From assembly GCA_965287045.1 (NCBI GenBank), contig OZ336899.1, positions 16,430,001-16,494,000 of the forward strand: DNA of 64,000 nucleotides, written 5' to 3'. Within the stretch, counting starts at the first letter, position 1. Each line of letters starts with the position of its first letter. The notes beneath the pieces were generated by a model. The model worked only from the letters and a program-made list of their open reading frames with translations, did no database searches and was not told the origin of the DNA. This DNA is from Carcharhinus amblyrhynchos. Taxonomy: Eukaryota. Shown piece after piece: positions 19,226 to 61,860 of this stretch. The translations under genes were made by a program, and so were the position numbers.

Positions 19226-19359
19226 GTGTGGACATCAACTCAGGGCAGAACTGGACTTTGATATCATGCCTCCCCAGCCAAATAGCCCATCAGCACTCAT
19301 TGCATATGTCCAATATGAACAATAGCAACAAAAGTGGGGCCTATAGTTTTCATAGACCT

Positions 19360-23129: not shown

Positions 23130-23535
23130 AAAGTACAGCATGGACTTAGATACTGAGTAAAACTCCCTCTACATTGTACCCAACAAACACTCCCAGGAGA
23201 GGTAAAGAATTGGATTAGATACAGGGTAAAGCTCTCTTTACACTGTCCCAGCAAAAACTCCCAGGACAGGTACAGCATGGGGTTAGATACAGAGTGAGTC
23301 TCCCTCTGCACTGTCCCCATCAAATACTGCCAGGACATGTACAGCATGGGATTAAATACAGGGTAAAGCACCCCCTACACTGTCCCCGTCAAGCACTCCC
23401 CAGAGAGGTACAGAAAGGTGTTAGATACAGAATAAAACTCCCTCTACGCTATCCCCATCAAACACTCCCAGGACAAGTACAGCATGGGGTTAGATACAGA
23501 TTAAAACCTCCTCTACACTGTCCCCATCAAACACT
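23130..23535 (+). repeat. ~69-bp dispersed satellite array (continues 24896-25005 after the Penelope insertion)
   Basis: Unit ACACTGTCCCCATCAAACACTCCCAGGACAGGTACAGCATGGGGTTAGATACAGAGTAAAGCTCCCTCT, about 6 copies. Confidence 0.92.
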
Positions 23536-24895
23536 GTAAGAAGCCTCACAACACCAGATTAAAGTCCAACAGGTTTACTTGGTAGCGCAAGCCACAAGCT
23601 TTCAGAGCGCTGCCCCTTCATCAAGTGAGTAGGAATTCTATTCACAAACAGGGCATACAAAGATACAAACTCAATTTACAAAATAATGGTTGGAATGTGA
23701 ATCTTTACAGGTAATCAAGCTGTAAACTTACAGACAATGTGAGTGGAGAGAGGGTTAAGCGCAGGTTAAAGAGATGTGCATTGTCTCCAGCCAGGACAGT
23801 TAGTGAGATTTTGCAAGCCCAGCCAAGTCATGGGTTTAAAGATAGTACGACATGAACCCAAGATCCCAGTTGATGCTATCCTCATGTGTGCAGAACTTGG
23901 CTGACAGTCTCTGCTCAGTGACTCTGCGCTGTCGTGTGTCCTGAAGGCCACCTTGGAGAATGCTTACCTGAAGATCAGTGGATATCAGGATATGGCGCTC
24001 GACTCATCGATCGACAGTTCCAACACACCACAGCGAAAAACCGCATTGACCTCCTCAGAAGACAAACACGGGACACGGTGGACAGAATACCTTTCGACGC
24101 CAAGTACTTCCCTGGAGCGGAGAAACTACGACATCTTCCCCAGAGCCTTCAACATGTCCTCATTGAAGACGAGCACCTCGCATTGGCCATTCCCAGACCC
24201 CCATTTCTTGCCCTCAAACAACCGCACAACCTCAAACAGAACATTGTCTGCAGTAAACTACCCAGCCTTCAGGAGAACAGTGACCATGACACCACACAAC
24301 TCTGCCATAGCAACCTCTGCAAGATGTGCCGGATCATTGATATGGATGCCATCATCCCATGTGAGAACACCATCCACCAGGCACACAGTACATACACTTG
24401 CAACTCGGCTAATGTTGTCTACCTGATACGCTGCAGGAAAAGATGTTCCGAGTCATGGTACACTGGGGAGACCATGCAGACGCTATGACAATGGATGAAT
24501 GAACACCGCTCGCCAATTAACAGTGTTCTCTTCTTGTTGGAAAACACTTCAGCGGTCACGGGCATTCGGCCTCTGATCTTCAGGTAAGCATTCTCCAAGG
24601 CTGGAGACAATACACATCTCTTTAACCTGTAGTTAACCCTATTTCCACTTGTATTGTCTGTGCCTTTAAGAATTGATTACATGTAAAGACTCACATTCCA
24701 ACCATTATTTTGTAAATTGAATTTGTGTCTTTGTATGCCCTGTTTGTGAACAGAACTCCCATTCACCTGATGAAGGGGCAGCGCTCCGAAAGCTTGTGGC
24801 TTGTGCTACCAAATAAACCTGTTGGACTTTAACCTGGTGTTGTGAGACTTCTTACTGTGCTTACCCCAGTCCAACATCAGCATCTCCACATCATG
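23536..24895 (+). mobile_element. 5'-truncated and inverted Penelope-like retroelement (Neptune-type GIY-YIG endonuclease remnant)
   Basis: ORF 23934-24488 has a Cys linker CHSNLCKMC and GIY-YIG motif NVVYLIRCRKRCSESWYTGET. 23536-23980 is the reverse complement of the 3' end. 11-bp TSD CCCATCAAACA at 23523-23533 and 24896-24906. Confidence 0.9.
24764..24798 (+). ncRNA. Minimal type I hammerhead ribozyme motif in the Penelope terminal repeat
   Basis: CAC-CTGATGA-A-GGGGC(AGC)GCTCC-GAAA-GCTT-GTG. Core boxes intact, 5-bp stem II, stem I CAC/GTG, palindromic AAGCTT in place of stem III, predicted cleavage after CUU. Confidence 0.8.
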
Positions 24896-25406
24896 CCCAT
24901 CAAACAGGAGAGATACAGAATGGGGTTAGCTATAGAGTAAAGCTTCTTCTACACTGTCCCCATCAAACACTCCCAGCACAGGTACAGCATGGGGTTAGAC
25001 TCTGTAAAGTGTGATATTTACACTATCTACTCCATACTGTACCTGCCCTTTCACACAGTTCCAACAAAATTTGATATAATTACCTCCAGAAATTTACCAC
25101 GCAACATTGAAATGCCATGAGAGTGGATGTTTTAGTGATTTTTACACTAGATATTACTTGTGACCAGCATCACTGAATGTTTAATCAGTGGACTTCGCTT
25201 CCATTTTGACAGAAAGTGCAGTATGCATTTCCCATAACCTAGCTAAGTGATAAGTCCTAAAAGTCAAACCAAGACCTCTTTCTGCTGTATCCTGGCTACA
25301 GGAATCACTGCTGCTCTGTGATCTTTGGTTTGGTGGATAGATCATAGTCTCTCCTTCAGGCTATGGGTCAGACTATAAACCAACAGAACTTATTTATTGA
25401 ACATTA

Positions 25407-27377
25407 GTTGGTTAAAAGGAAAAAGGAGGCTTATGTTCGGATGAGACTTGAGGGCTCAGGTAGTGCACTAGAAAGCTTTAGATTGGCTAGGAGGGAGTTG
25501 AAGAGTGAATTAAGAAGGGCTAAAAGAGGACATGAGAAGACTTTGGCTGATAGGATTAAGGAGAATCCTAAGGCGTTCTATAGGTATGTTAAGAACAGAA
25601 GGTTGGTTAGGGCAAGATTAGGGCCAGTTACAGACAGCAGAGGGAAGTTGTGTGTGGAACTGGAAGAGATTGGTGAGGCATTGAACCAATATTTCTCTTC
25701 GGTGTTCACGCAGGGGGACATGAATGTAGCCGAGGAGAACACTGGGTTGCAGGGGTGTAAACTAGACAGTATTGCAGTTGATAAGGGGGATGTGCTGGAT
25801 ATTCTTGAGGGTTTGAAAATAGATAAGTCCCCTGGTCTGGATGGGATTTACCCTAGGATTCTCTGGGAGGCAAGAGAAGTGATTGCAGAGCCTCTGGCTC
25901 TGATCTTCAGGTCGTCGTTGGTCTCAGGTATAGTACCGGAAGATTGGAGGATAACGAATGTTGTCCCATTGTTTAAGAAGGGAAACAGAGACTTCCCCGG
26001 GAATTATAAACCGGTGAGTCTTACTTCTGTTGTGGGCAAGGTTTTAGAAAAAATTATTAGGGATAGGATTTATAGTTATTTGGAGAGTAATGAATTAATT
26101 GGAGATAGTCAGCATGGTGTTGTAGTGGGTAGGTCGTGCCTTACTAACCTTATTGAGTTTTTTGAGAAAGTGACCAAAGAGGTGGATGGGGGAAAGGCAG
26201 TTGACGTGGTATATATAGATTTTAGTAAGGTGTTTGATAAGGTTCACCATGGTAGGCTTCTGCAGAAAATGCGGATGTATGGGATTGAGGGTAATCTAGG
26301 AAATTGGATCAGGAATTGGCTAGCAGATAGGAGACAGAGGGTGGTGGTTGATGGTAAATATTCGTCATGGAGTTCAGTTACGAGTGGTGTGCCTTAGGGA
26401 TCTGTTTTGGGGCCACTGCTGTTTGTAATTTTTATTAATGATCTGGATGAGGGTATAGTTGGGTGGATTAGTAAATTTGCTGATGACACCAAAGTCGGAG
26501 GTGTGGTAGATTGTGAGGAAGGGTGTCGTAGTTTTCAGGGTGACTTAGACAGGTTGCAGAGCTGGGCCGAGAGGTGGCGGATGGAGTTTAATGCAGAGAA
26601 GTGTGAGGTAATTCACTTTGGTAGGAATAACAGATGTGTCGAGTATAGGGCTAACGGGAGGACTCTGAATAGTGTGGATGAACAGAGGGATCTAGGTGTA
26701 TGTGTACATAGATCCCTGAAAGTAGGGAATCAAGTAGATAAGGTTGTTAAGAAGGCATACGGTGTCTTGGCGTTTATTGGTAGGGGGATTGAATTTAGGA
26801 GTCGCAGCGTCATGATGCAACTGTACACAACTCTGGTGCGGCCGCACTTGGAGTATTGTGTGCAGTTCTGGTCCCCACATTATAGGAAGGATGTGGAGGC
26901 TTTGGAGAGGGTGCAGAGGAGGTTTACCAGGATGTTGCCTGGTATGGAGGGGAGGTCCTATGAGGAGAGACTGAGGGATTTGGGGTTGTTTTCGCTAGAA
27001 AAAAGGCGGCTAAGAGGGGATCTTATTGAAACATACAAGATGATTAGAGGTTTAGATAGGGTGGATAGTGATAGCCTTTTTCCTTGGATGGAGAAAGCTA
27101 GCACGAGGGGGCATGGCTTTAAATTAAGGGGGGGTAGTTATAGGACGGATGTCAGGGGTAAGTTCTTTACCCAGAGGGTGGTGAGGGATTGGAATGCCCT
27201 GCCTGCTGCAGTTGTAAATGCGCCTAGTTTGGGGGCGTTTAAGAGATCCGTGGATAGGTTTATGGATGAAAAGGGATTGGTTTAGGTTAGAGGGTCATTG
27301 CTTTTTAACTGGTTGGCGCAACATCGTGGGCCGAAGGGCCTGTTCTGCGCTGTAATGTTCTATGTTCTATGTTCTAT
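25407..27377 (+). mobile_element. Young 5'-truncated CR1 LINE, copy A (one premature stop)
   Basis: ORFs 25408-26397 and 26407-27285 are one RT frame broken by TAG at 26395 in GVP(Q>*)GS. 3' tail (CTATGTT)n. Confidence 0.96.
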
Positions 27378-27649
27378 TAAGCAGGTAAATGAAGAAATGA
27401 AGAATACTCAGTCCAAACTGGGAATGTACAGGAGTTGCAAGCTTCACAACACTAATTGAAATATTAAAAGTAACAAAGATCTTTCACTGCTCTAATGCTC
27501 ACCATAAAACTAAACAGTGCTGTTACTGCCATAGTGGCTGTGACTATTGATGAACCTCACATTAGCTTTGCACTGCTGACCACGACTGCCTGACCAATCG
27601 ACTCAAAATATAATTTCAGGAGAGAACACAGATCGGCGGGGGGAGTGGT

Positions 27650-27910
27650 GGGGAGGTTCTGTGGGGAAAATCTTTTTTATCCAGGGGGTGGTGACAGTCT
27701 GGAATGTGCTGCCTGGGAGGGTGGTAGAGGCAGGTTGCCTCACATCCTTTAAAATGTATCTGGATGAGCATTTGACACATCATAACATTTAGGGCTATGA
27801 ACCAAGTGCTGGCAGATGGGATTAGGTGGGACTTCAGGTGTTTCTAATGTGTCAGTCTGGACTTGATTGGCCAAAGGGCCTCTTCTGCACTATATGATTC
27901 TGTGATTCAA
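27650..27910 (+). mobile_element. CR1 3' fragment, same subfamily as 10090-10345
   Basis: GTCTGGAATGTGCTGCCTGGGAGG...GCTGGCAGATGGGATTAGGTGGGA...GGGCCTCTTCTG. Confidence 0.8.
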
Positions 27911-28224
27911 AGGGCATTATCTGTATCCCTCATCATTTAAGAATAATTTCTTGGTATATGGCCAAGGTCATCTGAAAGTGGTGATGGATCTTGATCTCAA
28001 ATTCCTGTGCGGTTCTGATCATTGCTGAAATGGAGTGGCTTGCTTCAGAGAGCAGTTAAAGCATCAGCCATGTTGGTGTAGTATTGGAATGCAGAGAATG
28101 CCCATTACTCACAAGGCTTTCCAATCAACAATGTTCCTGTGTTGCTTGGAATTTATTGGAATGGTTTTATTCTTCAATCTGTCGCAAATAACTTTGATGA
28201 GCTGTGAGACCAGTCCCCACTTAA

Positions 28225-28492
28225 GGTGGCACAGTGCTTAGCACTGCTGCTTCACAGCACCAGAGTCGCAATTTTGATCCCCGGCTTGGGTCACTGTGTG
28301 GACTCTGCAAACTCTCCCTGTGTCTGCGTAGGTCTCCTCCTGGTACTCCGGTTTCCTCCCACAGTTTGAAAGACATGCTAAATTCTCCCTCAGTGTATCT
28401 ATACAGGTGCCAGAGTGCAGCAAATAGGAGATTTTCACAGCAACTTCATTGCAGTGTTAATGTGAGCCTACTTGTGACACGAATAAATAAAC
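28225..28492 (+). mobile_element. V-SINE variant with a non-CR1 tail
   Basis: GGTGGCACAGTGCTTAGCACTGCTGC head, V domain, tail CAACTTCATTGCAGTGTTAATGTGAGCCTACTTGTGACAC.AATAAATAAA. Confidence 0.75.
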
Positions 28493-29039
28493 TTCATATC
28501 TATCAAGGATCAGAGTTCTGGATACACTCACCCTGGCGAGAAAGATCTTCAGTTAAATTTGCTGGTGTATAACAAGGAGACACAAGTTTGTTTAATTGAG
28601 AAAAGGTCACTTTAGGACTGATATCAGATGTTCCTCTTCACACCGAGAGTGTGATCAACATTTGGAATGAATGGCGGAGGCGAGGATTCTGGAATCATTT
28701 CAGGAATATTTGGATTGTGTAATGTGGGGAGTGTAGGATGGTTCCGGGTGGGTGAATTAACACAGGATGAATGATCTTCTTCATCTCCGGTTATCTTGCG
28801 ATCTTGCTCAGGCTGTGTAACAATGATTTTAACCCCACGTGGGTTGTAACTAGCAGGAAAGAATCCAATAAATAATTAATTATCGTGGTGGAGCTGGGGA
28901 AATTTGGTGATGAAAGGTTGAATTGGAAGGAACACCTGTCCAAATTGTGCAAGATACACCCAGTCTAGAGCAAGGGGAAGAAAGAGCAAGCGGTTTCTTA
29001 GCAGAGTTAGGACCAATGATAACTTTCCCTTTTTTCTTT

Positions 29040-29380
29040 CCTGGGCTGTGGGTGATACTGTCAAGGCAGTATTTGTTGCCTAAGCCCAATTTCCTTTGAA
29101 CTGAGTGGCTTGCTCAGCCATTTCAGGGAGCAGTTACAGGGGCTCTAAAGTACAAGTAGGCCAAACAGGATAAGAATGGTAGATTTCCTTCCCTTATGGA
29201 CACAAGGGAACCAAATAGTTTTTTTACATCAATGATAGTTTCAGGCTCATCATTAGCTGTATATTCCAGATTTATTTATTAATTGAATTTAAATTCCGCC
29301 AGCTACTGTGGTGCGATTTGACCTCAGATCCTCAAAGCACTAGGCTCTGAATTACTATTTGAGAGATATTACCACCCTGT
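29040..29380 (-). mobile_element. tRNA-headed SINE with L2-type tail
   Basis: Reverse complement matches the head at 41068-41330 and 29720-29880 (GGCGGAATTTAAATTCAATT...GGAAGGAAATCT). Confidence 0.6.
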
Positions 29381-34560: not shown

Positions 34561-34569
34561 TGGAAGAAT

Positions 34570-36540
34570 AAAACAAGTAAGAGCAGGAAAGAGAGAGTAT
34601 GAGAGGAGACTGGCAGCTAACATAAAAGGGTTATAAATATAAACAGGATGGTAACAAGCAGGGTAAGGCTGATTAGGGAGAAAAGAGGGGATTTACATGG
34701 AGGGCATGGCTGAGGTACTAAATGAATACTTTGCATCTATCTCTACCAAGGAAGAAAATGCTGCCAAAGTTGTTGAAAGAGGAGATAGCTGAAACAAAGA
34801 GTCATCCAGACTCAAAATGTTATCTCTAGTTCCTCTCCACAGATGCTGTCAGACCTGCTGGGATTTTCCAGCCTTTTGATGAGTTACTGGGACTGAATCA
34901 AATGCATCTGAGAATGCTAAGGGAACAAAAAGTGGAAATTGTGGAGGTGCTGGCCACAATCTTCCAATCCTCCTCAGATATAGGGCTGTGCTACAAGACT
35001 GGAGAATTTTAAATGCTGTACCTTGCTCAAAATATGATGCAAGGAGAAGCCTAATAACTACAGGCACTCAACTTAACCTCAGCAGTGGAGAAAAGTTTTT
35101 GAAATGATAATCTGAGACAAATTTAGTCTCTTGGACAAATCTGGATTAATTAAGGAAAACCAGCAGAGTTCTGTTAATGGGAACATCCAACTTAATTTGA
35201 ATGAGTTTTTCGGTGAAGTAACAGTGACAGTTAATAAGGGTAATGTGGCTGATGTGGTGTACATGGCATCCAATAGGTGTTTAATAAAAAGCCACATAAC
35301 AGGCTTGTTGGCAAAGTTCAAACCCCTGGAATAAAAGGGCCAGTTGTGGCATGGATATGAAGTTGGCTCAGTGACAGGAAACAAAAGTAATGGTGAACGA
35401 TTGTTCTTTGGGCAGGCAGATGATACGCAGTGGCCTTCCCCAGGGATCAGTATTTGGAGCACTTCTTCTCCTGACCTATGTCAGTTACTGAGACTTAGGT
35501 GTGCCGGACACAACTTTAACATTTGTAGGTGACACCAAATTTGTATGTGTTGTGAACTGTGAAGTCCAAAGATGTGTAAGTTAGGGGGATTGGCCAGAGT
35601 AAATGTGTGGTGTTGCTTTTTTGGAGAGTCAGTGCAGTCTCAATGGGCCAAATGGCCTCCTTGTACACTGTAGTGATTCTATGGATTCTGTGGTACCCCC
35701 TTGTTGGACTTCCAAGAGAACATTGATATGTTGGTGGAATGGGTGGACAACTAGCATATGAAATGAATGCAGAGAAGAGTGAAGTGACACATTTTGGTAG
35801 GAAGAACTAGAAGAGGCAACATAAAGTAAAAGATACAAGTCTAAAAGGGATGCAAGGACAGAGAGATGTGGTATGTATGCACAAATTGTTGATGTGGCAG
35901 AACAGGTTGAGAAAGCTTAAAATAAGTATGTGGAAACCTGGGCTTTTATAGGTAGGGGTATAGAATACAAAGGCAAAGAAGTTATGATGAGCTTGGATAG
36001 AACATTGTTTCAACTTCAAATGGAATATTGTGTCCAATTCTGAGCATCCTTCTGGAAGGGTGTGGAAGCATTGGAGAAGGTGCAGCAAAGATTTCTGAGA
36101 GTACTTTTAGAGATGAGGGACCTCAGCTGCAGGGATAGACAAGAAAACTGGGTGTTCTTCTGAGAAAAGAGGAGGCTGAGAGGAGATTTAATAGAAGTTT
36201 ACAATATCACAGGGTAGGGACAGAGTTGAGAATGAAACTGTTTCCATTGGCGGATGGGTCACCAATTTAAAGTGATTGACAAAAGAAGCAGAGGCGACAT
36301 GAGGAAAAACAGTTTATATGGTGTGTGGTTAAGATTGCAAATACACTGCCTGAGGGTAATCTGGAAGCAGATTAAATCATAGCTTTCAAAAGGGAATTGA
36401 ATAATTATCTGAAGAGAAATATATTGCAGGGCTATGGGGGAAAGGCAGGGGAGAGCGACTGGCTGAGTTGCTTTCAGAGACAGCCAGAATGGGCGCAATG
36501 GTCGAATGGCCTCCTTCCGAGTTGCAAGCATTTATGATTC
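34570..36540 (+). mobile_element. Old decayed CR1 ORF2 with nested short insertions (Penelope terminus ~34795-34877, V-SINE tail ~35563-35690)
   Basis: Remnants of YERRLAANIK, LNEYFASI, LIKENQ, ADVVYM, EYCVQF and RGDLIEVY with many stops; tail GAATGGCCTCCTTC. Confidence 0.8.
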
Positions 36541-40629: not shown

Positions 40630-40726
40630 GTAAAAACAGAAAATTCTGGAAATACTCAGCAGATCAGGTAGCATCTGCGGAGAGAGAAACAAAGTTAATG
40701 TTTCAGGCCAGTGACCTTTCCATCAG
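40630..40726 (-). mobile_element. Short Penelope-type terminal fragment with a degenerate hammerhead motif
   Basis: Reverse complement CTGATGGAA-AGGTC(ACT)GGCCT-GAAA-CATT-AAC...CAGATGCT; same family as 34795-34877 and 42721-42857. Confidence 0.65.
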
Positions 40727-42720: not shown

Positions 42721-42857
42721 AGTAACAGCCAAAACCTGCAGATGCTGGAAATCTGGAAGGTAAACAAAAAATACTGGAAAAGTTCAGCAGGTCTGGCAAC
42801 ATCTCTGGAGAGAGAAACAGAGTTAACATTTTGAGTCAATTATGACTACTTTGGAAC
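42721..42857 (-). mobile_element. Short Penelope-type terminal fragment with TSD
   Basis: TGCAGATGCTGGAAATCT...CAGCAGGTCTGGCAACATCT..GAGAGAGAAACAGAGTTAAC, flanked by TCAGATCTAA / TCAAATCTAA. Confidence 0.7.
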
Positions 42858-44679: not shown

Positions 44680-46551
44680 TGAGTTAAGAAGGGCTAAAAG
44701 AGGACATGAGAAGACTTTGGCTGATAGGATTAAGGAGAATCCTAAGGCGTTCTATAGGTATGTCAAGAACAGAAGGTTGGTTAGGGCAAGATTAGGGCCA
44801 GTTATAGACAGCAGAGGGAAGTTATGTGTGGAACCGGAAGAGATTGGAGAGGCATTGAACCAATATTTCTCTTCGGTGTTCACGCAGGGGGACAAGAATA
44901 TAGCTGAGGAGGACACAGGGTTGCAGGGGAGTAGAATAGACAGTATTACAGTTGATAAGGAGGATGTGCTGGATATTCTTGAGGGATTGAAGATAGGTAA
45001 GTCCCCTGGTCTGGATGGGATTTACCCTAGGATTCTCTGGGAGGCAAGAGAAGTGATTGCAGTGCCTCTGGCTCTGATCTTCAGGTTGTCGTTGGCCTCT
45101 GGTATAGTACCGGAAGATTGGAGGTTAGCGAATGTTGTCCCATTGTTTAAGAAGGGGAACAGAGACTTCCCCGGGAATTATAGACCGGTGAGTCTCACTT
45201 CTGTTGTGGGCAAGGTTTTAGAAAAAATTATTAGGGATAGGATTTATAGTTATTTGGAGAGTAATGAATTGATTGGAGATAGTCAGCATGGTTTTGTAGC
45301 GGGTAGGTCGTGCCTTACTAACCTTATGAGTTTTTTGAAAAAGTGACCAAAGAGGTGGATGGGGGTAAGGCAGTTGACGTGGTATATATGGATTTTAGTA
45401 AGGCATTTGATAAGGTTCACCATGGTAGGCTTCTGCAGAAAATGCAGATGTATGGGATTGAGGGTAATCTAGGCAATTGGATCAGGAATTGGCTAGCAGA
45501 TAGGAGACAGAGGGTGGTGGTTGATGGTAAATATTTGTCATGGAGTTTGGTTACGAGTGGTGTGCCTCAGGGATCTGTTTTGGGGCCACTGCTGTTTGTA
45601 ATTTTTATTAATGATCTGGATGAGGGTATAGTTGGGTGGATTAGTAAATTTGCCGATGACACCAAAGTCGGTGGTGTGGTAGATTGTGAGGAAGGGTGTC
45701 ATAGTTTGCAGGAAGACTTGGACAGGTTGCAGAGCTGGGCTGAGAGGTGGCGGATGGAGTTTAATGCGGAGAAGTGTGAGGTAATTCACTTTGGTAGGAA
45801 TAACAGATGTGTTGAGTATAGGGCTAACGGGAGGACTTTGAATAGTGTGGATGAACAGAGGGATCTAGGTGTATGTGTACATAGATCCCTGAAAGTTGGG
45901 AATCAAGTAGATAGGGTTGTTAAGAAGGCATACGGTGTCTTGGCGTTTATTGGTAGGGGGATTGAATTTAGGAGTCGCAGCGTCATGTTGCAACTGTACA
46001 CAACTCTGGTGCGGCCGCACTTGGAGTACTGTGTGCAGTTCTGGTCCCCACATTACAGGAAGGACGTGGAGGCTTTGGAGAGGGTGCAGAGGAGGTTTAC
46101 CAGGATGTTGCCTGGTATGGAGGGGAGGTCCTATGAGGAGAGACTGAGGGATTTGGGGTTGTTTTCGCTGGAAAGAAGGCGGCTAAGAGGGGATCTTATT
46201 GAAACATATAAGATGATTAGAGGTTTAGATAGGGTGGACCGTGATAGCCTTTTTCCTCGGATGGAGAAAGCTAGCACGAGGGGGCATGGCTTTAAATTAA
46301 GGGGGGGTAGTTATAGGACGGATGTCAGGGGTAGGTTCTTTACCCAGAGGGTGGTGAGGGATTGGAATGCCCTGCCTGCTGCGGTTGTAAATGCGCCTAG
46401 TTTGGGGGCGTTTAAGAGATCCGTGGATAGGTTTATGGATGAAAAGGGATTGGTTTAGGTTAGAGGGTCATTGTTTTTTTAACTGGTTGGCGCAACATCG
46501 TGGGCCGAAGGGCCTGTTCTGCGCTGTAATGTTCTATGTTCTATGTTCTAT
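44680..46551 (+). mobile_element. Young 5'-truncated CR1 LINE, copy B (one frameshift)
   Basis: ORFs 44717-45346 and 45343-46458 are split by a 1-bp deletion (CTTATGAG versus CTTATTGAG in copy A). Nearly identical to 25407-27377; (CTATGTT)n tail. Confidence 0.96.
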
Positions 46552-48124: not shown

Positions 48125-48600
48125 ACAGTGATTAGGAACAGGAGCCTTTACTGATTTCCCCCTCTCTCTGACCCCCAAATATTGGATATAGTGTGGAGCA
48201 GGAACCCTGACTGATTCCACCACCCCCCATCCCACACCATCCCAATCCATCTAATACAGTTCTCAGTGACAGGGATTGGGAGCAGGAACCCTGGCTGATT
48301 TTCCTTCTTCCTCTACGGTAGGGGACACTATACACAAATCAAGAGGAGGAATATTGGCTGATTTCCCCTCTCTTACTAACTGAATGGTCACTAGCCAGTA
48401 ATCAAGAACATGGATCCTGGCTGAATTCCCCTCCCTCTAACCCAGGGTCACTGGGCCGTGAGCAGGAGCAGGAATTCTGGCTGAATTCCCCTCCCTCTAA
48501 CCCAGAGTCACTGGGCCATGAGCAGGAGCAGGAATTCTGGCTGAATTCTCCTTCTTCTAACACAGGGTCACTGGGCTGTGAGCAGGAGCAGGAATAACTC
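48125..48600. repeat. Degenerate ~60-bp satellite related to the 64-bp array at 54625
   Basis: Three aligned 60-bp units CTGAATTCCCCTCCCTCTAACCCAGGGTCACTGGGCCGTGAGCAGGAGCAGGAATTCTGG plus about 5 diverged upstream monomers. Confidence 0.85.
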
Positions 48601-49670: not shown

Positions 49671-50024
49671 ATTCCCTTACACCAAGAATTATTCAACACC
49701 AAGTTCAATCGCTTGTCTGTGCTGACATTGTCCATCTCAGCCAGGTTGGCAGTCAAGGTTCAGGGCCCCAATATTAGGAAGGGGAAACAATGAAAGTGAC
49801 AGCAGTGTGTTGGGAGGTCACTGCGCGTTCCCATTTCTTAATCTTATCCAGGATCATTATGCAAAGCGCAATGACTAAGCAGAAGGTAAAGGAAAGGTGA
49901 AGTGTGTGGGGTTCAAAAGAACAGATCATGACGATGGAACTGAAATCCAGCTTTAGGTGGGGACTTCAGGACAGGAGTTGGGAACTCTAAAAAACCTAAC
50001 TACCAGTGGTGGTCCCTGCACCAG

Positions 50025-50635
50025 TTAACTATCAGTGGAGGTCACTATATCATTTAACTATCGGTGGAGATCCATGTACTGTTTAACCATCAGTGGAGTT
50101 CCCTGTACTGTTTAACCATCAGTGGAGATCCATGTACTGTTTAACTATCAGTGGAGATCCCTGTACTGTTTAACTATCAGTGGGGCTCCCTGTACTGTTT
50201 AACTATCAGTGGAGATCCCTGTACTGTTTAACTATCAGGGGGGCTCCCTGTACTGTTTAACTATCAGGGGGGCTCCCTGTACTGTTTAACTATCAGGGGG
50301 GCTCCCTGTACTGTTTAACTATCAGGGGGGCTCCCTGTACTGTTTAACTATCAGTGGAGATCCCTGTACTGTTTAGCTATCAGTGGAGTTCCCTGTACTG
50401 TTTAACTATCAGTGGAGTTCCCTGTACTGTTTAACCATCAGTGGGGCTCCCTGTATTATTTAACTATCAGTGGAGATCCCTGTACTGCTTAACTATCAGT
50501 GGGGATCCCTGTACTGTTTAACTATCAGTGGGGATCCCCGTACTGTTTAACCATCAGTGGAGATCCCTGTACTGTTTAGCTGTCAGTGGAGATCCCTGTA
50601 CTGTTTAACTATCAGTGGGGCTCCCTGTACTGTTC
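50025..50635. repeat. 29-bp minisatellite, ~21 units
   Basis: Unit CTGTACTGTTTAACTATCAGTGGAGATCC; a run of four GGGGGGCTCC variant units in the middle. Confidence 0.95.
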
Positions 50636-50816
50636 GAATTGAACCAGCAGATTTTGTCATCGCAATTACAAATCAGCACAACATTACTTCAGAAAGATTC
50701 TGGCATAAATCATTAATAGTACCTACAATATCAAAGGACAGCTAAAATCCTGGGACAGCTACAGAGTAGATTAGATGTAAAGTAAATTTCTCTCTATACT
50801 GTCCCAATCTAATACT

Positions 50817-51038
50817 GATGTGGAGATGCCAGCGTTGGACCGAGGTAAACACAGTAAGAAGTCTCACAATACGAGGTTAAAGTCCAACAGGTTTATTTGG
50901 TAGTAAAAGCCTCTAGCTTTCGGGGTTAGCCCCTTCGTTAGGTGAGCTGACTTGACGAAGGGGCTCACCTGACAAAGGGGCTAACCCCAAAACCTGTTGG
51001 ACTTTAACCTGATGTTGTGAGACTTCTTACTGTGTTTA
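50817..51038 (-). mobile_element. Short inverted Penelope-like terminal element inserted in a satellite monomer
   Basis: GATGTGGAGATGCC...GTAAGAAGTCTCACAA..AAAGTCCAACAGG and its reverse complement. 14-bp duplication CCCAATCTAATACT at 50803-50816 and 51039-51052. Confidence 0.85.
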
Positions 51039-51164
51039 CCCAATCTAATACTCCCAGGAGAGGTACAGTTTCAGTCAACTTACAACCAGAATCACCATAG
51101 AACAAGCCATTGGCTTGGCTCAAAGTGCAAGTTCCTGTGCAGTGACTGATATGTGGGTGTCCTT

Positions 51165-52395: not shown

Positions 52396-53804
52396 TCCAG
52401 CCCAACCTGTTTGGTGAGGCTAGCTGACCCCCTCCTTTCATCCTCTGCGAAACGTGACCGCTTCCAACATCACCTCCAGAGGGGAAGCATTGTGAAAGTG
52501 AGAGTTGTCCTACTCAATCTCCCAGTCATTCTCCACCTTTTATATGCTTCCGGTGTGAGAGTTGCAGCTGTACTTTTTAAAACTAATGTTGTCTTCATAT
52601 TTCAGACTATTCAGCCCACCCACTCCTCCTAATTGGACAGAAATCCTAGCAGCAGCTCTTCAATGTCTGATCCCTGGAAATAGAGAAATAGGAAAGCTCA
52701 TTGATCGGAGGTTCATATTCCCAATCCAGAAATGGATTCTGTCATTGCGCTGGAGACTCAGTCAATGAGATTCCACCCAATGCCTCAGGCCTTTGACCTG
52801 TCATCAGACTGGAAGCTGATCAAGCATCAGTCTGAGCTGGACTCGAACCTTTCACACAGATTGATTAGAAGAACATACTTCCATGTACACAAACACTTTT
52901 CACTAATTCACCATTGGAGTACTTTTAAGTGTAGTCACTGTTGTAATGTAGGAAACACAGCAGCTAATTTGTGCACAACAAGATCCCTCAAATTAGTCAA
53001 ATGATCAAATCCTCCTCTTATTCAAATAGCATCCTTGAGTATTTAAGGGTAACTGAACCACAGCTTCTTCTGTGATTCTACAATGGGGCTGGGTGAGGAG
53101 GCAGCTCAAGCAGACCTGAGCCAGGATGGAGACCAAACACCACACTCCCGGCATTATTCTGAACCCCACACTCCCGCTGGCTGAGCTAACCAAGAAATGG
53201 AGCAAAGTATTGAGTTGATGGGTTTTGATGTGAGAGGCGGTGGGAAAGCGGCTGGTTGTAAGTTGCAAGGTTAGTAGTAACTCCAGCCTTGTCAATCTGC
53301 TTTCTGCTGTATACAAATCAACACTGGAAACTCTTTCAATACCCCACCTGAGGGCCTAACTTCCAAACCAACAAGAGGCAATATTCTTTGCCTCCGTCCA
53401 CAATAAGGAAGGAAGCACATGATCACATAGTGTAAAGAAACGCAAGTCTGTGTGAATGATTTCTTTGTGGAGTTTGCTAGAGGCAGGACACTGACACCAT
53501 TGTGCTAGCCCCAGACAACTCATCATCTCCATACTGCCCCAGGCTCAGGGACACTCTGAACATGTGAGTGAAGTTCAAGACAGAAGTCATGTTCTGACAA
53601 CAAGTACCACCAACTAAGCAATGCAATGGTGACAGTGGCTCCAAATTGAGAGATAAATCTCTTCTCAATCCTGATCCTGAAACGTTGACTCCTTTGGAGG
53701 AGAGGAACGGGATTAGCTTCCCTGGTGAAATAGCCTGTTGACACTTTCACTCAGCTCAACAAGAACCCGCAGTTAGCTATAGTACTTCAGTGGACATAAA
53801 GACT

Positions 53805-54175
53805 GTATCCTAGCCTGAGATTGTATCCCAGTTTGCAACTGTATCCCAGCTCACGACTATGTCTCAGCATGATACTGTGCCCCAGCTTGCAACTGTATCC
53901 CAGTTTGCAACTGTATCCCAGCTCACAACTGTATCCCAGCTTGCTACTGTGTCCTAGCTTGCAACTGTATCCAACTTGCAACTATATCCCAGTTTGCGAC
54001 TGCATCCCAGCTCATGACTGCGTCCCAGCTTGCTACTGTGTCTTAGTTTGTGACTGTGTCCTAGTTTGCTACTGTACCCTAGCTTATGACTGCGTCCCAC
54101 CTGGCGACTGCATCCCACCTGGTGACTGCATCCCAGATTGCAACTGTATCTCAGTTCGAAACTGTATCCTAAACT
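53805..54175. repeat. Degenerate 18-bp minisatellite, ~20 units
   Basis: Unit CAACTGTATCCCAGTTTG with gradual drift along the array. Confidence 0.88.
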
Positions 54176-54624: not shown

Positions 54625-55690
54625 TGTGAATCACTGAACTGTGATCAGGAGAAGGAACCCTGCCTAATTCCCTCTCTCTCTAACCCAGTGTGAATCACTG
54701 AACTGTGATCAGGAGCAGGAACCCTGCCTGATTCCCTCTCTCTCTCTAACCCAGTGTGAATCACTGGACTATGATCAGGAGCACGAACCCTGCCTGATTC
54801 CCTCTCTCTCTAACCCAGTGTGAATCACTGGACTGTGATCAGGAGCAGGTACCCTGCCTGATTCCCTCTCTCTCTAACCCAGTGTGAATCACTGGACTAT
54901 GATCAGGAGCAGGAACCCTGCCTGATTCCCTCTCTCTCTAACCCAGTGTGAATCACTGGACTATGATCAGGAGCAGGAACCCTGCCTGATTCCCTCTCTC
55001 TCTAACCCTGTGTGAATCACTGGACTGTGATCAGGAGAAGGAACCCTGCCCGATTCCCTCTCTCTCTAACCCAGTGTGAATCACTGGACTATGATCAGGA
55101 GCAGGAACCCTGCCTGATTCCCTCTCTCTCTCTAACCCAGTGTGAATCACTGGACTGTGATCAGGAGCAGGAACCCTGCCCGATTCCCTCTCTCTCTAAC
55201 CCAGTGTGAATCACTGAACTGTGATCAGGAGCAGGAACCCTGCCTGATTCCCTCTCTCTCTAACCCAGTGTGAATCACTGGACTGTGATCAGGAGCAGGA
55301 ACCCTGCCCGATTCCCTCTCTCTCTAACCCAGTGTGAATCACTGGGCAGTGATCAGGAGCAGGAACCCTGCCTGATTCCCTCTCTCTCTAACCCAGTGTG
55401 AATCACTGGACTATGATCAGGAGCAGGAACCCTGCCTGATTCCCTCTCTCTCTAACCCAGTGTGAATCATTGGGCAGTGATCAGGAGCAGGAACCCTGCC
55501 TGATTCCCTCTCTCTCTCTAACCCAGTGTGAATCACTGGGCTGTGATCAGGAGCAGGAACCCTGCCTGATTCCCTCTCTCTGTAACCCAGTGTGAATCAT
55601 TGGGCAGTGATCAGGAGCAGGAACCCTGCCTGATTTCCTTTCTCTCTAACCCAGTGTGAATCATTGGGCAGTGATCAGGAGCAGGAATCC
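54625..55690. repeat. 64/66-bp minisatellite with an internal (CT)n, ~17 units
   Basis: Unit GTGTGAATCACTGGACTGTGATCAGGAGCAGGAACCCTGCCTGATTCC(CT)nAACCCA. Confidence 0.96.
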
Positions 55691-56429
55691 TGGTGGATTT
55701 ATCTCATCTTAAAATCAGGAGTACTGAAGCCAATTGATGAAGCGGCTGTCTGTCCACAGGCAGAGATTAAGAATCACAAATAAACATATCCTGTAAGCAA
55801 GACCACAGGAGATCACCAATGTGCTAAAATTAATTAGAAAGCTTTAACTTTATTTTTTGTGAGCCCTTTCTTTAAAGATCTCCTATTTCCTCAATGTCCC
55901 TTTGATTGAATACATCTTGTAATTTCACACCTGGGGACTGTGTCCACTGCGTAGTTGTGACGGTAAACAAATCAGAATCTCTTCCTGCCATGGAGTAGCA
56001 GAAATGCCATGTGACAAAGTGTGACAAAAGGACTATCAATCCCGTCACACCATTCAAATGGAGTTAAAGATAAAATGGCAGTTCATTGCCAATGCTGTAA
56101 ACATCTTAAATGCCACTGAATCCGTCTCACTTGAGTTTGAGATATTTACTGAGACACCACAGCCGTTAAAGTTCAAACTGCTCCACTCTCAATCTTAATT
56201 TTCCCTTTCAGCAGATCTCGTGATGAGCCTCCTCAGGGCTGCTATCTGCTTCCAATAGAGGCTCTTTCCCTCCCTGTGGAGCCTCTGATCCACTTTCTTG
56301 GGGCAGTTTTGTAGTTACTGCCTCCCTCTCCCAAAAAAGCCTATCCTAATAAATGAGCTTAGGCAATGAGTATTGGCAAGCTACTCAGCCATGGGATTAT
56401 CTTACCAAGTCAAATCTTCTTTCACTTCA

Positions 56430-57110
56430 CACATGCACACTTGCACACAGTTCCACATATAAATCTATATATCTATACATATAGACAAACACACTCATGC
56501 ACACACACATACACACACTAATATTGACACATCCTCAAACACATCTACACACATACATAAATGTAAGCTCATACAAAGATACACATACAAATGTACACAC
56601 AGATACAAAGATACATACATTCACACACATACACACATATACATACAAATATACATACAGATGCGTACACACACACAAACACACAGATACATATACAGAT
56701 ATACACATACAGACATGCAAATCTATACAGGCACACACACATACACACAAATATACACACATAAACAAACACTTATATAAATATACACTCCATAAAGATA
56801 CATACATAAATATAAACACATAGACATAGATACATTCACACACATAAAAACATACACGAATTGACACATGTATACAAATACACATATACATGCACAAACA
56901 TACACACAAATGCATAAATACATATGCACACACACACACATGCATATATATTCACACGAATATACATACCTATAAATTTATATGCACAAATATGTACACA
57001 CATGCACATATATTCACTCACACACAGATACACACATATAAACTTAAACACATACACAATTATAGACTCTCACACAGACACAAATATGTATACACATACA
57101 TCTACACAGT
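56430..57110. repeat. Degenerate (CA/TA)n low-complexity tract
   Basis: Alternating CACA/TACA/TATA; explains the His-Thr and Val-Cys ORFs. Confidence 0.92.
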
Positions 57111-58050
57111 TCAAGTATGAACAAAAGAGCTGAACTCCAGAGGTGAAGTGAGAGTGACAGCCCGTGACATAAAGACAGGATTTGACAAGTATGGCATCAG
57201 GAGCCTGAGCAAGACTGGAGTCAATGGGAATCAGGGGAAAATCCTCCGCTGGTTGGAGGAAAATGGTGTGGTTGTTGGAGGTCAATCATCTCAGTTCCAG
57301 GGCATCTCTACAGGGTAGTGTCTTAGCCCCAACCATCTTCAGCTGCTTCATCAATGACCTTCCTTCCAACATAAGGGCAGAAGTGGAAATGTTCACTGAT
57401 GATTGCACAATGTTCAACATCGTTTGTGACTCTTCAGACACTGAAGCATTCTATGCTCAAATGCAGCAAGACCTGGACATTATCTAGGATTGGGCTGACA
57501 AGCGTCAATGACCATTTCCAACAAGACAGAATCTAACTAATTCCCCTTGACATTCAATGGCATTTCCATCATTGAATCCCCCGCTATTAACATTCTGGAG
57601 GAGGACAGCTCCATCAACACTCAAGAAGCCCAACACCACCCAGGAGAGAGCAGCCCACTTGATTGGCATCCTGCCCACAAACATCCAGTCTCTCACATAG
57701 TGGCAGCAGTATGTACCATCTACAAGATGCACTGCAGGAAGTCATTGAGGTTCCTTAGATAGCATCTTCCAAACTTGCAACAATTACCATCTAGGAGGAC
57801 AAGGGCAGCAGGTACATGAAAATTCCCCTCAAAGTCACTCACCATCCTGACTTGGAAATACATTGGCTGTTGGCTGTTTCTTCCCTGTTGTTGGATCAAA
57901 ATCCCAGAACGTCCTTCCTAAAGCACTGCGAGTATATGTCTACACCACGTGGCCTGCAGCGGTTCAAGAAGGCAGCTCAACACCACTTTCTCAAGGGATG
58001 CATAATAAATGCTGGCCTAGCCAGCGATGCCCACATCCCGGTAATGAATT
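57110..58050 (+). mobile_element. Decayed L2-type LINE RT and 3' end
   Basis: QGSVLAPTIFSCFINDLPS..MFTDD, homologous to 43480-43990; tail AATAAATGCTGGCCTAGCCAGCGATGCCCACATCCC. Confidence 0.85.
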
Positions 58051-58089
58051 GCAAAATATACACAGGGAGAATTAATTATATGGAATCAC

Positions 58090-58700
58090 CAACATAGAAA
58101 TCTGCCATTCAGTCCAACCACTCTATGCTGGTAATTTTACTCCATCTGCTCCCTTCTACCTATTTCATCTCAGCCTTATAACATGTCTTTCTATTTCCTT
58201 TTATCTCATTTACTAGCCAAATTTTCTCTTGAAAGCACCTAAGCTATTTGCTTCGATCATTTCCTGTGGCACTTTTTTCGAGTTCCACATTCTAACTGCT
58301 GACTGAGAATAAACATTTCTTTTTATTTCCCAACTGAATTCATTAATATCTTTCTTATGTCTATGGCCCCTAGTTTTAGATTCTTCCACAAGTGGAAAAT
58401 TCTCTCCATTTCTACCCTGTCCAACCTCAAAGACCTTCTCTTTTCTAAAGATAAATGTTCAAGCCTGTGTAGTCTTTCTTGTCAGCCTGCATCTCAGTTT
58501 TGCCACCAGTCTTGGTCTTTTCCAATGTATCTATATCATTACTATCGTTTGGAGATCAGAACTATTCCACTAAGTGTGGCCTCACAAGGGTGAGGTTTAA
58601 CATAACTTCACTACTTTTGAATTCTATTCACCAGGAATAAATCAGTACGTTGTCAACATTTCAATTGCTTTGTTAGCCTGTGATGGTGCTTTAATGATTG
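58090..58700 (-). mobile_element. Old CR1 3' fragment
   Basis: GCCATTCAGTCCAACC..., GAGTTCCACATTCT and GCCCCTAGTTTT are reverse complements of the CR1 tail, WNS and TRG motifs. Confidence 0.6.
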
Positions 58701-61574
58701 GTTCTCCTCTATCTGGATTGTTTTGTTCTTCCTACCTCATTCAGTTTCCTATTTTCTCTTTGTTCTAAATATAGATTGGCACTGGTTGGCACAGGCTGTC
58801 ACTGAATGGCATGTGCTGATTCTGCCTAACATAGGTGCACAGACCATCATTAATTGGCATTGGGTATCATTGTCTACCATCAGCTATCATGTACAAGTGC
58901 ACACATATCATTGACTTTGTAAAGTTAGCTATGACCAGTCAATGGTAATCAATGATAGACAGTGTTGGGCAACACCAGCCCAGGCCAATCAGTGATGGCC
59001 CATGTCAGCCAGTATCAATCAATTGTAACCAGTGCCACCCAGTCAGTACAATCCGGTGCCAGCCGTTGCTAGTCTATGTCAGCCAGTGTAGAGCAATGCT
59101 GATCAGTGAAACCCAATGGCAGCCAGTGATAACCAGTGCCAACTCAATGATATGACTCAACCCATATCATTGAGTGTCAGTTAATGTTAATCTGTGTCAT
59201 TCAGTACCAGCCAGTGTTAGACCATTCCCTTCCAGTACTGTGGGTGTATCTACACAGGATGGACTGCAGCAGTTTAAGAAGAAGATTCACTATCACCTTC
59301 TCAAGGGCAAAAATGCTGGACCAACCAGTGATGTTCACACCCCATGAAAGAGTTTCAAAAAGATTCCAGTCAATGCCAGCTAGTTTCATCCACTGTCATT
59401 GATGGATGGGGGAGGAGTGGTAGGGAAGGAGGGCAGTATAGGTTAGTGTTGTGGGGGTGAGTGAGCATTCCCAACCTACCTGCCCGGAATGTTTTGGACG
59501 TGTAATGTAGGTCACTGCCTGCAGTGTTTGGAAATAAACAAGGCTGTGGGTTACAGCTCACAGCAAAGCTGGCTTGCTGGATAATTATCACATTCTTTCA
59601 ACATTCCTTTCTTTCCGCTTACACATTCTCAAAGACACAAAAGTTATCAGAGTGTCCGATTAATCCTGGAGTTCAGACTGTGAAACCATTGTGTCAGTCA
59701 CAGTGCCTGTAGCCTTCAATATGAATACATCCAAGGCCCTCCTGAACAGCCGGGGCACACTGTGGTAGGGAATGCTCGCTCACTCCACATCAAACCCCAC
59801 TGTCTCCCCACTTACTCCTTCATCAGATGAGAGCTGCCACTGACAATTTTCTTTTTCAATCAAGAATTTGACTGAAATTGCAAATATGATTATAATGACA
59901 TCCTGATCTGGTTTCTCATTCAAAAACTCTTGAGGCGACAATGATTTAATCATTTGATAATGGTCTGGTAGTGTGGGATTAAGGACGGATCATTGGCGAG
60001 GAATATCGATAGCACTGGATTCACTGATTACTGGTGCCTCGCTGGCATGTGAATGGCAATCAGCATTGAAAATTGAAGAGAGCTGCAGCAAACAGGTTGT
60101 TAAACAGCTTCTTCGTAAACTGCCAAGAAGGATGTTGTCAGACTTTTTACCAAGAAGGATGAGCACATTGCCAGTGTCATCCCACCACTGTGTAATACTA
60201 AAATTAATTTTTGGGGATAGGGGCCCTTGCCAAAAAGGCTGATATTTATTGCCCACCCCTAGTTGGATGGGACTGACATTTCTCGTAAGATGTTGAACTG
60301 AGTAAGAATGCTTTTCCAAAAGGACATTAGTTTAATGAGCACAAGTCTTAGTGTGGGAGTTTGAATTCCCTTTAATCTGCTAGCAGGATTTACCCTTTCT
60401 CCTCTTTTCAGTTTGCAGAAGTACCAAACTATTCACCATTTTTTGGTTGTCTTTGGGATGTGCACATCACTGGTGAGGAGGGTATTTTTGTCCAAATCTA
60501 GTTACCCTGGGAAAGTGGGAGTGCCCTCTATAATAATTCCAGGAACCAGCTAGAAAGGAACAGTGCTTTACTGCACAAAATAAAGTAAAACCACAAGCCT
60601 GTGGTGAACACGAACAAGTCCCCACCAGGAAAGTACAATAATGGACCCAATCAGGGGCCTGCTTTGTCGAGGGCTCAGTATACGATTTCCACCAGGTAAG
60701 GTAATTACCAATCACCAGGGAACTCGTATTCAAGGTCAAACAGTGATTCCCCACTCAAGTCCTGGAGATTATTAAACTTTGCCAACCTTCACCGGAGCAG
60801 ATTTTGAGACAACTCAGTGGTCACTTCTAAAGGCAGTTACATGTGGAATATAATTCCCAGCATTGACCTGATGGGCTGAACGGCCTGACCCTGTGTGTAG
60901 AATTGCTGTAACATGATGTAAAAGTGCTATTCACAGAACCATTGCCGATGGGATTGCTGCAGTTTAAAGATGAATCCTGGCTGTAAATTAACTCCAGTCT
61001 CTCAGCTGAAGCTGTACGATGCTGTTTGAAGCAGTAATTTATTGCCCTGGTCATACTGTGACAGAGCGGGCCTCTGAGATGGTGGGAGGACAATGCCAAT
61101 CCTCAGTAACTACATCAAATCACTCTCAGGGACCACAGTCTGGAAATTATGATGCAGCTTCAGCAGAAACTTAAGGGTCTTGTTTATAAACATCAATTCC
61201 CAAGCACAGATATAGAACTGCCATTTTTACAGCTGTTTTTAAAGCTTTGCCCTTTGAGAAACAATTTTACTGTAAACCATTTAACAGTCAGAGTCTCACA
61301 GCCACTTCAAACACATGTGTGAAGAACATTAGCAGGTGTGTGAGGAAATCTGAGTTACTCACTTACATTTATTGCACAACGTTCCAGTCTTGTTGAAGTT
61401 TCTAACAGCCCAGGCAACACATTCACTGAGTCCTGAGTCTGATTGCTTTGATTTTTGGTGACTATTGTACTAATAAAGATGAAGGATGCTTAGAGAGTGG
61501 ACTGGGACATTCTCCATTACAGGCACATATTGAGAACAGGAAGCAGATACTTTCCACACATCTTTTTTCAGAGA

Positions 61575-61860
61575 GTGCGCTGTACCTGTCTTGGGGGTGT
61601 TTGATGGGCATGATGTGGAGATGCCGGCATTGGACTGGGATAAACACAGTAAGAAGTCTTAGAACACCAGATTAAAGTCTAACTTTTAAAACTTTTAAAA
61701 GTTAAAGTTAGACTTTAACCTGGTGTTCTAAGACTTCTTACAGTGTTTGATGGGGACAGTGTAGAGGGAGCTTTACTCTGTATCTAACCCCGTGCTGTAC
61801 CTGTCCTGGGAGTGTTTGATGGGGACAGTGTAGAGGGAGCTTTACTCAGTATTTAAACCA
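61575..61860 (-). repeat. ~69-bp dispersed satellite copies flanking a Penelope hairpin
   Basis: GCTGTACCTGTCCTGGGAGTGTTTGATGGGGACAGTGTAGAGGGAGCTTTACTC. Confidence 0.9.
61609..61741 (-). mobile_element. Minimal inverted Penelope-like terminus (hairpin) in the satellite
   Basis: CATGATGTGGAGATGCC...GTAAGAAGTCTTAGAACACCAG / CTGGTGTTCTAAGACTTCTTAC. TSD GTGTTTGATGGG at 61597-61608 and 61743-61754. Confidence 0.85.

Follow-up and report, generated by a model that had tools for sequence, protein, structure and literature searches.

Probable repeated insertion of a Neptune-type Penelope-like element at one position of a dispersed 69-bp minisatellite in a shark

Three family copies of a Penelope-like element (PLE) lie in the window, the whole 64-kb stretch of DNA analysed, namely E1 (23536-24895), E2 (50817-51038) and E3 (61609-61741), and all of them are inside a 69-bp minisatellite. 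The same 12-14 bp satellite segment is duplicated at every copy, in one orientation at two copies and in the other at the third. A target preference with base-level precision is thus supported, and on balance we favour three separate insertions at a strongly preferred, probably non-exclusive site of this dispersed minisatellite. The further proposal that in this shark lineage the Neptune element has R2-like precision, with a dimer, a 13-bp staggered cut and both ends priming cDNA, is tentative and in our judgement rather doubtful.

Three insertions in one register of the satellite

The coordinates, shared termini, orientations and junctions given in the original prediction were all reproduced. 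The features are as follows.

2501..2590, minus strand, unoccupied satellite locus, 13-bp site intact (2547-2559)
8981..9041, plus strand, decayed empty satellite locus (E 2e-6)
23133..23535, plus strand, satellite array left of E1, 5.9 units (TRF, site list)
23523..23535, plus strand, left target duplication of E1, CCCATCAAACACT, 13 bp
23536..23981, minus strand, inverted arm of E1: end of the endonuclease region and pLTR, tail absent
23982..24601, plus strand, direct part of E1: decayed ORF remnant
24767..24791, plus strand, minimal hammerhead core (CTGATGA, stem II, GAAA) in the E1 pLTR (pattern scan)
24856..24895, plus strand, tail of E1; its terminal ATG is the start codon of the element ORF
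24896-24906, plus strand, right duplication of E1, 11 bp kept, then a 6-bp deletion
to 25000, plus strand, about 1.5 more satellite units right of E1, after the right duplication
50746..50816, plus strand, decayed satellite unit on the left of E2, with the variant target at its end
50803-50816 and 51039-51052, plus strand, duplication of E2, CCCAATCTAATACT, both copies, 14/14 identical
50817..51038, minus strand, E2: direct arm 50817-~50947, short inverted arm to 51038
51039..51068, plus strand, 0.4 satellite unit right of E2, with the right duplication
61579..61608, minus strand, 0.4 satellite unit with the downstream duplication of E3
61609..61741, minus strand, E3: direct arm 75 bp, A/T-rich self-templated filler, inverted arm 34 bp
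61742-61754 and 61596-61608, minus strand, duplication copies of E3, 12/13 matching
61742..61861, minus strand, 1.7 satellite units upstream of E3

The minisatellite amounts to 939 bp in five loci, or 1.5% of the non-element window, so that the earlier statement that all family copies sit in a minor fraction of the window holds for 3/3. Three of the five loci and 3 of the 11 recognisable sites in the 64-kb window are occupied, and the array at 23133..23535 contains five empty sites plus the occupied one. Compared with the majority unit, the nearest unit upstream of E3 is identical at 68/69 bases and the unit left of E2 at 51/68. The empty site predicted at about 2545 is real (2547-2559), and the match at 8981..9041 stands against a best E of 1.3 in the reversed window as control. 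A 6-bp inverted repeat (CTGTCC/GGACAG) flanks the target site on both sides. A hairpin target was rejected, since the satellite unit folded no better than shuffles (z 0.02-0.31), which left no target motif or structure definable, and since the nicks are asymmetric about the CTGTCC/GGACAG dyad. The satellite target is A/C-rich.

Same-site insertion of the three copies was confirmed: duplications earlier measured as 11, 14 and 12 bp imply, with the lengths listed above, an underlying duplication of about 13 bp at all three, that of E2 being 12-14 bp when junction microhomologies are allowed for. E1 and E3 share the same junction type at both ends and E2 has the opposite orientation; both orientations are compatible with one pair of nick positions to within 1 nt. 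Before insertion, the E2 target already differed from the 13-mer at 3/13 positions. The match between the element's own AAACAC and the target at the inverted junction, pointed out earlier, is real, comprising 6 nt plus a target-derived T in E1 and E3; the corresponding microhomology in E2 is about 3 nt. From the inverted arms 30-40 nt of the 3' terminus are missing, as is standard for PLEs (PMC3846280). The arms of E1 pair over 264 nt at 88% complementarity plus a 31-nt match, and its inverted arm retains about 158 bp missing from the direct arm near 24600.

The chance that all 3/3 copies fall in the satellite was 3.4e-6 and that two further insertions share the register (+/-1 nt) 1.9e-3, giving a joint chance of about 6e-9, uncorrected for scanning many windows. 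As a control, 0/23 other interspersed-repeat intervals lay within 20 bp of the satellite. A genome-wide satellite share of just 10% would yield 3/3 in one per 1000 such windows, and the one-sided 95% lower bound on the share is 0.37 when the window is treated as a random draw. The sample is n=3, from a single window chosen as striking.

Identity of the element

On its sequence motifs, this shark element is assigned to the Neptune type of Penelope-like retrotransposons. The direct part of E1 encodes the post-RT region, a C-x4-CxxC linker and a GIY-YIG domain with CCHH residues, interrupted by an in-frame stop and a frameshift, and its GIY-YIG remnant shares 74-80% identity with proteins of Mustelus and Scyliorhinus. 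A pattern search found the GIY-YIG endonuclease motif in the E1 remnant and 8/12 relatives; Pfam GIY-YIG matched relative P0054 with E 8e-4, below the curated cut-off, and E1 itself had no Pfam match. The window copies are 5'-truncated and the RT domain is absent from them; it is present (PF00078) in relatives P0054, P0059-61 and P0064, which are 51-80% identical to the E1 remnant. The C-x4-CxxC linker, found in E1 and 11/12 relatives, falls within the CX2-5CxxC before the endonuclease that defines the Neptune clade (PMC8557442) and speaks against the Penelope/Poseidon clade, which has no zinc-finger-like linker; motif 4 also matches the Neptune rows of the supplement of PMC8557442 in a by-eye comparison. 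The (TA)n microsatellite bias reported for Neptune, a tendency and not a defining feature, was seen in 0/3 window copies. Linker and endonuclease motifs are nearly identical in Mustelus, Scyliorhinus and Heptranchias proteins.

Of the four window-wide pattern matches to the hammerhead, three are putative cores with a stem II of 4-5 bp, lying in both arms of E1 and in E2, and Rfam gave no hammerhead match at the gathering threshold. Stem II of E2 differs, the same stem II recurring in its rearranged second arm, and E2 is accordingly classed by sequence as a separate subfamily. An EN+ PLE is marked by an RT domain ahead of the endonuclease in one ORF, a minimal hammerhead in the pLTR, and a direct or inverted pLTR with an optional 30-40 nt tail over the ORF start; these features are seen in the window copies or, for the RT domain, in the relatives. 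That the terminal ATG is the ORF start follows from an antisense-compatibility test, which scored 14/22 residues, with a maximum of 9 at other offsets (858 tested). No further family copies were detected in the window with a pLTR DNA profile or by tblastn with four ORFs that were complete or nearly so.

Apparent independence of the insertions and rival explanations

The comparison of inversion breakpoints proposed in the original prediction revealed three different points, with arms of about 446 bp (E1), 49 bp (E2) and 34 bp (E3). The E3 arms carry three common changes absent from E1 and E2, and differ mutually at 1/35 positions but at 3-6 from the E1 and E2 arms; later hairpin repair could explain these shared changes. 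Around the three loci no outer duplications above chance were found (shared words reached 5 nt at most, against mostly 5-6 nt in random pairs). Extended flanking variants shared between copies had been named as a sign of duplication of one ancestral insertion, and the outer flanks of different loci showed no similarity at E<0.1. The tails of E1 and E3 have no shared derived change, and their identical ends are the modal ends of the family, 18/37 parsed relatives keeping the residue that the antisense of the ATG encodes. Since E2 belongs to another subfamily, the outer flanks are unrelated and the junctions are the usual ends of the family, the three insertions look independent.

It is quite unlikely, in our view, that E1 and E3 derive from one satellite-element-satellite insertion copied with the satellite, with E3 losing its centre and E2 representing a second event. 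Their junctions agree at both ends, long inverted repeats easily lose their centres, and the dispersal of the satellite in short arrays indicates that something moves it; against this stand the missing outer duplications and flank similarity, the tails without a common derived change, the modal nature of the shared ends, and the need for a separate E2 insertion at the identical site (0.015 x 0.043). The suggested co-mobilisation of a satellite-PLE composite was not borne out for the same lack of outer duplications and shared outer flanks. Passive capture, in which the host breaks or nicks the satellite site and microhomology to the element RNA primes cDNA, the endonuclease having no preference, could draw on the 6-nt (E1/E3) and roughly 3-nt (E2) microhomologies and on the inverted repeat bracketing the site. 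We consider it very unlikely, as the clean 12-14 bp duplications and fixed ends suggest enzyme-made staggered nicks, no other repeat family occupies the site in the window, and tail-satellite similarity equals that of shuffles (14 versus a mean of 15.4; 4141/5000 shuffles and 641/878 window tiles as good). Chance clustering is extremely improbable: the window was chosen after the fact, yet with a joint chance of about 6e-9 even some 30 repeat families times tens of thousands of windows (a rough estimate) would leave only about 0.01.

How exclusive the preferred site might be was judged from relatives, from other or unnamed sharks. Recognisable satellite was present in 0/40 of their parsed flanks, five of which are genuine flanks that bear the terminal peptide of the window type; the sampling is biased against junctions with the satellite. 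From 53 proteins, 13 had been dropped, for fewer than five flank residues or, in the case of P0033, because parsing missed it; P0007 and P0040 represent the element's own ORF start and not flanks. The flank score was 51 for a consensus-like satellite control, 27 and 29 for decayed controls and 28 for the top of the 40 flanks, so it misses decayed satellite flanks and the negative leans partly on eye inspection. These mixed flanks would argue against exclusive targeting, lend no support for any preference, and fit a site that is not exclusive. Near-exclusive, R2-like specificity, with the family inserting almost solely at this minisatellite site in the shark lineage, therefore appears unlikely to us: although it would accommodate 3/3 copies from at least two subfamilies, 3/11 filled sites and the lower bound of 0.37, the terminal-peptide relatives P0004, P0024, P0026, P0041 and P0045 carry other flanks, and, with near-identical motifs among the three shark genera, a sharp lineage-specific switch has no visible protein basis. 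Of the targeting inferred earlier, base-level site preference is supported.

Among 1361 candidate satellite-junction peptides in the protein database a single one was satellite-like, without an element part, and this database is therefore unable to gauge the satellite share. A full-text search with four junction and satellite motifs matched 0 papers. Bacterial and archaeal genomes, screened for stray shark DNA, gave 120 loci, all chance matches of at most 29 bp.

Proposed mechanism and known systems

In the mechanism we propose, the GIY-YIG endonuclease, aided by the zinc-finger-like linker, would introduce two nicks, on the top strand behind the T of the 13-mer and on the bottom strand ahead of the first C of that 13-mer. 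Both of the resulting 3' ends might prime cDNA, one at the tail end beside the ORF start codon and the other about 30-40 nt inward, perhaps assisted there by microhomologies of 6 nt in E1/E3 and about 3 nt in E2. The two cDNAs would be fused head to head through end-joining and filler, with orientation set by which nick uses which start site. Recognition is presumably tolerant, because the E2 target already differed at 3/13 positions. RNA-guided pairing of tail and target was considered and rejected, the best alignment on the duplicated segment scoring 14 versus 15.4 for shuffles.

The background assumption of a weak, AT-rich preference proved incomplete for a Neptune-type element, as repeat preferences are reported: Neptune, Naiad, Hydra and Chlamys PLEs favour microsatellites, PLE-X occupies a precise 28S rDNA site, and the Neptune linker has been proposed to mediate repeat bias (PMC8557442). 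PLE repeat targeting at microsatellites and 28S rDNA is thus already known, and an exact insertion site within a minisatellite of complex sequence would be new. In contrast to Neptune-1_Ac, DrerioNep1 and Neptune1_Nv (PMC8557442), the target here is no simple repeat but a fixed 13-bp part of a 69-bp unit of complex sequence, and the duplications can be read. PLE-X of Selaginella (PMC8557442), which is Chlamys-related, likewise inserts at one exact position of a multicopy repeat, but it is a plant element without a GIY-YIG domain and targets 28S rDNA. R2, Utopia and YURE non-LTR elements (PMC4640811) also use a multicopy, low-cost site, YURE weakly preferring a U2-derived satellite; they are not PLEs, have a restriction-like endonuclease and form no tail-less inverted arms.

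Craig et al. (PMC8557442) name the inverted structures and repeat bias of PLEs, which concern target choice and inverted ends, as unexplained. Microsatellite targets hide cut sites, whereas a complex fixed target hit both ways exposes both nick positions, and the system permits testing of the linker-finger hypothesis and the two-primer model on a defined substrate. Were strict specificity true, a vertebrate GIY-YIG element would join the short list of site-specific retrotransposons; R2-like precision would mean that a natural, genome-scale record exists of how PLEs prime their second strand, and a mere hot spot would still be a useful natural experiment of modest scope.

Also among the closest known systems are Poseidon_Ac of the green anole (PMC11167929) and the rotifer Penelope families (PMC3846280), which resemble the present element in having a tail bounded by two RT start sites at the ORF start, both strands cut and extended, a tail-less inverted pLTR, a pLTR hammerhead and 8-10 bp duplications; they differ in belonging to the Penelope/Poseidon clade, with no linker finger, an AT-rich preference and no fixed repeat target reported. 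In the anole element, cleavage and extension affect both strands, with RT starting at two sites that bound the tail. This protein, the one full-length PLE that has been purified, cuts AT-rich DNA (ATT), and its start site is non-homologous (PMC11167929). Its AT-rich cutting contrasts with the A/C-rich satellite target here.

The satellite site and its three insertions

Scanned with a nucleotide profile built from the terminal repeat (pLTR), the window yielded six arms, a direct and an inverted one for each of three 5'-truncated Penelope-like element (PLE) copies, and no further copy below E 0.66. Their coordinates agree with the original prediction:

23536-24895, E1
50817-51038, E2, inverted relative to E1 and E3 in satellite orientation
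61609-61741, E3

ORF remnants were confined to E1, as revealed by tblastn of the window with four relatives, and by both searches every copy of the family in the window (3/3) lies in the dispersed 69-bp satellite, as had been claimed. The unit profile placed this satellite at five loci, 939 bp altogether and 1.5% of the window once elements are set aside. Elements occupy three of these loci and 3 of the 11 sites that could be recognised. Read in satellite orientation, E1 and E3 start directly after the 13-mer CCCATCAAACACT and stop directly before its second copy, and the E2 boundaries coincide with theirs to within 1 nt despite its opposite orientation; junction comparison thus bore out the identical E1/E3 junctions and reversed E2 first proposed. 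In the window, all 23 intervals of other interspersed repeats are more than 20 bp away from the satellite. The chance of finding all three copies in the satellite is 3.4e-6 and that of the shared register 1.9e-3, making chance clustering extremely improbable. The satellite site is a real, non-chance hot spot for the element.

The arrays after E2 (51052-51068) and E3 (61579-61596) both end ~0.4 unit beyond the duplication, either on GGTACAG or immediately past it, and the long array begins at GTACAG (window 23133); these limits may indicate where the satellite prefers to end as it disperses. Of the six frames of the unit, one is stop-free, giving a 23-residue repeat (106 open codons at 23219-23536, for example), and the remaining five are closed.

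Element identity and a proposed two-primer model

Twelve of 350 candidate proteins matched the 168-residue E1 remnant, and several of them have an RT domain. Identity was 74-80% for named proteins of Mustelus asterias and Scyliorhinus torazame and 69-70% for two from Heptranchias, which marks the window as shark DNA. E1 and 11 of the 12 relatives possess a C-x4-CxxC linker ahead of a GIY-YIG domain that has two cysteines inside it, a linker type that the accessible part of PMC8557442 gives as a mark of Neptune and Nematis elements; by eye, RT motif 4 of the relatives agrees with the Neptune rows of its supplement. E1 and E2 each carry a minimal hammerhead core in their terminal repeat, as described for fish Neptune elements (PMC4209133, available portion). 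The element ORF starts at the ATG terminating E1 and E3: two relatives that continue past this ATG fit a full-length protein N-terminus in antisense at 14/22 residues, whereas none of 858 other offsets exceeded 9. The inversion itself is ordinary, since an inverted repeat without the 30-40 nt tail plus a short duplication is standard PLE structure (PMC3846280, accessible text).

All three elements show ~13-bp duplications with fixed boundaries in both orientations, filler sequence at their centres and the anticipated microhomology at the inverted junction (6 nt in E1 and E3, ~3 nt in E2). Two nicks 13 bp apart would leave two 3' ends, both of which could prime cDNA, starting at the tail end in one case and 30-40 nt further in for the other, and the two cDNAs would be joined head to head. 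This two-primer model resembles L1 twin priming. It also matches the anole Poseidon protein, which cleaves and extends both strands, is a predicted dimer and uses two start sites bounding the tail; however, that protein prefers ATT and requires no homology, which counts against the model for the window elements (PMC11167929, accessible text). RNA-guided target recognition was rejected, tail-satellite similarity being no better than shuffles, and a hairpin target was unsupported by folding of the satellite unit. In E1 and E2 RNA (24755-24895 and 50817-50950), GUUGGAC pairs with GUCCAAC of the tail in a stem-loop enclosing the inner start site; whole-region folding around this stem was not significant (z -0.9 and -1.5, respectively), and a private change of E3 lies inside it.

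Independence and degree of site preference

Insertion of E2 was independent, as indicated by its opposite orientation, its other hammerhead stem II and a target already altered by three changes, which predate insertion and are carried by both duplication copies. E1 and E3 share both junctions, as expected if one composite had been duplicated with the satellite, but their inverted arms differ in length (~446 vs ~34 bp), satisfying the expectation of independent inversion breakpoints, three changes common to both E3 arms occur in neither E1 nor E2, and no derived change common to the E1 and E3 tails was found. The 3' end of E1 and E3 is widespread in the family, the residue read from the ATG in antisense being kept in 18 of 37 parsed relatives. 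Neither an outer duplication above chance around the elements nor similarity between outer flanks of different loci was detected, against the proposed co-mobilised satellite-PLE composite. As later hairpin repair could have homogenised the E3 arms, shared ancestry of E1 and E3 is unlikely rather than refuted; composite duplication is judged improbable, and passive capture somewhat more so.

We lean towards independent insertions at a preferred satellite site. Near-exclusive specificity would account for 3/3 window copies, yet it is rather unlikely given the relatives, gathered from protein sets by antisense translation of the element terminus (23 matches among 24 candidates in one search and 44 representatives in another, 53 distinct proteins). 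Parsing left 40 with a flank of 5 residues or more, and in none of them was the flank recognisable as the 69-bp satellite. CR1-like RT is among their flanks, as are other repeats and two different tandem repeats, and five genuine flanks belong to proteins with the terminal peptide of the window copies. Such mixed flanks argue, as a weak test, against exclusive targeting across sharks: satellite-junction ORFs are ~33 residues long or absent in frame, most matches carry no species assignment, flanks of decayed satellite escape the score (controls at 27 and 29 vs a top score of 28 among relatives), and a satellite-frame peptide search returned 1 protein among 1361 candidates. Three of three in one selected window fits strict targeting or a 10% share alike, the latter yielding 3/3 once per 1000 three-copy windows. 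A strictly site-specific endonuclease-bearing element is doubtful.

Repeat targeting by PLEs is already published, and a precise minisatellite site would be a variant of it: in the accessible text of PMC8557442, Neptune, Naiad and Hydra are listed with (TA)n, Chlamys with (CA)n and (C)n, and PLE-X, which lacks the endonuclease, with a precise 28S rDNA site. YURE non-LTR elements show a weak satellite preference (PMC4640811, available part). Neither a shark PLE in the 69-bp minisatellite nor this minisatellite as such was the subject of any paper found by our literature search, outside whose scope lay Repbase, subscription journals and bioRxiv supplements, sources that may bear on the point. 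The insertion is not described in the accessible portions of PMC10620051, PMC12602865, PMC6155905, bioRxiv 10.1101/2025.06.08.657570 or 10.64898/2026.07.22.740005.

Other repeats among relatives and in the window

One relative protein (P0053) carries a pair of element ends separated by 72 nt, with an apparent 40-nt repeat between them, and another (P0026) follows a 63-nt tandem repeat; no tandem-repeat enrichment is claimed, because 2/40 flanks approximates the tandem-repeat share of the window. Two further relatives (P0008 and P0020) are inserted at the same position of a CR1-like RT sequence, a pattern that either another hot spot or a single ancestral insertion could explain; similar empty RT copies occur at window 26300-26380 and 45470-45555. 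Of the interspersed pairs in the window, the two CR1-like LINE copies at 25506-27377 and 44680-46551 (96% identity over 1873 bp) are the youngest. The element is absent from the other window minisatellites, of which the 60-bp and 64-bp arrays are related, and another interspersed repeat family has no fragment near the satellite:

19358-20783, minisatellite, 38-bp unit
48417-48595, minisatellite, 60-bp unit
49997-50634, minisatellite, 29-bp unit
53802-54169, minisatellite, 18-bp unit
54625-55692, minisatellite, 64-bp unit
34809-34877, 40634-40698 and 42762-42837, three short fragments of the other interspersed family

An exon-like stretch at 2632-2724, presumably from a lipid phosphate phosphatase gene, matched PAP2 weakly (E 0.003, below cut-off), and the empty satellite site lies ~40 bp upstream of it.
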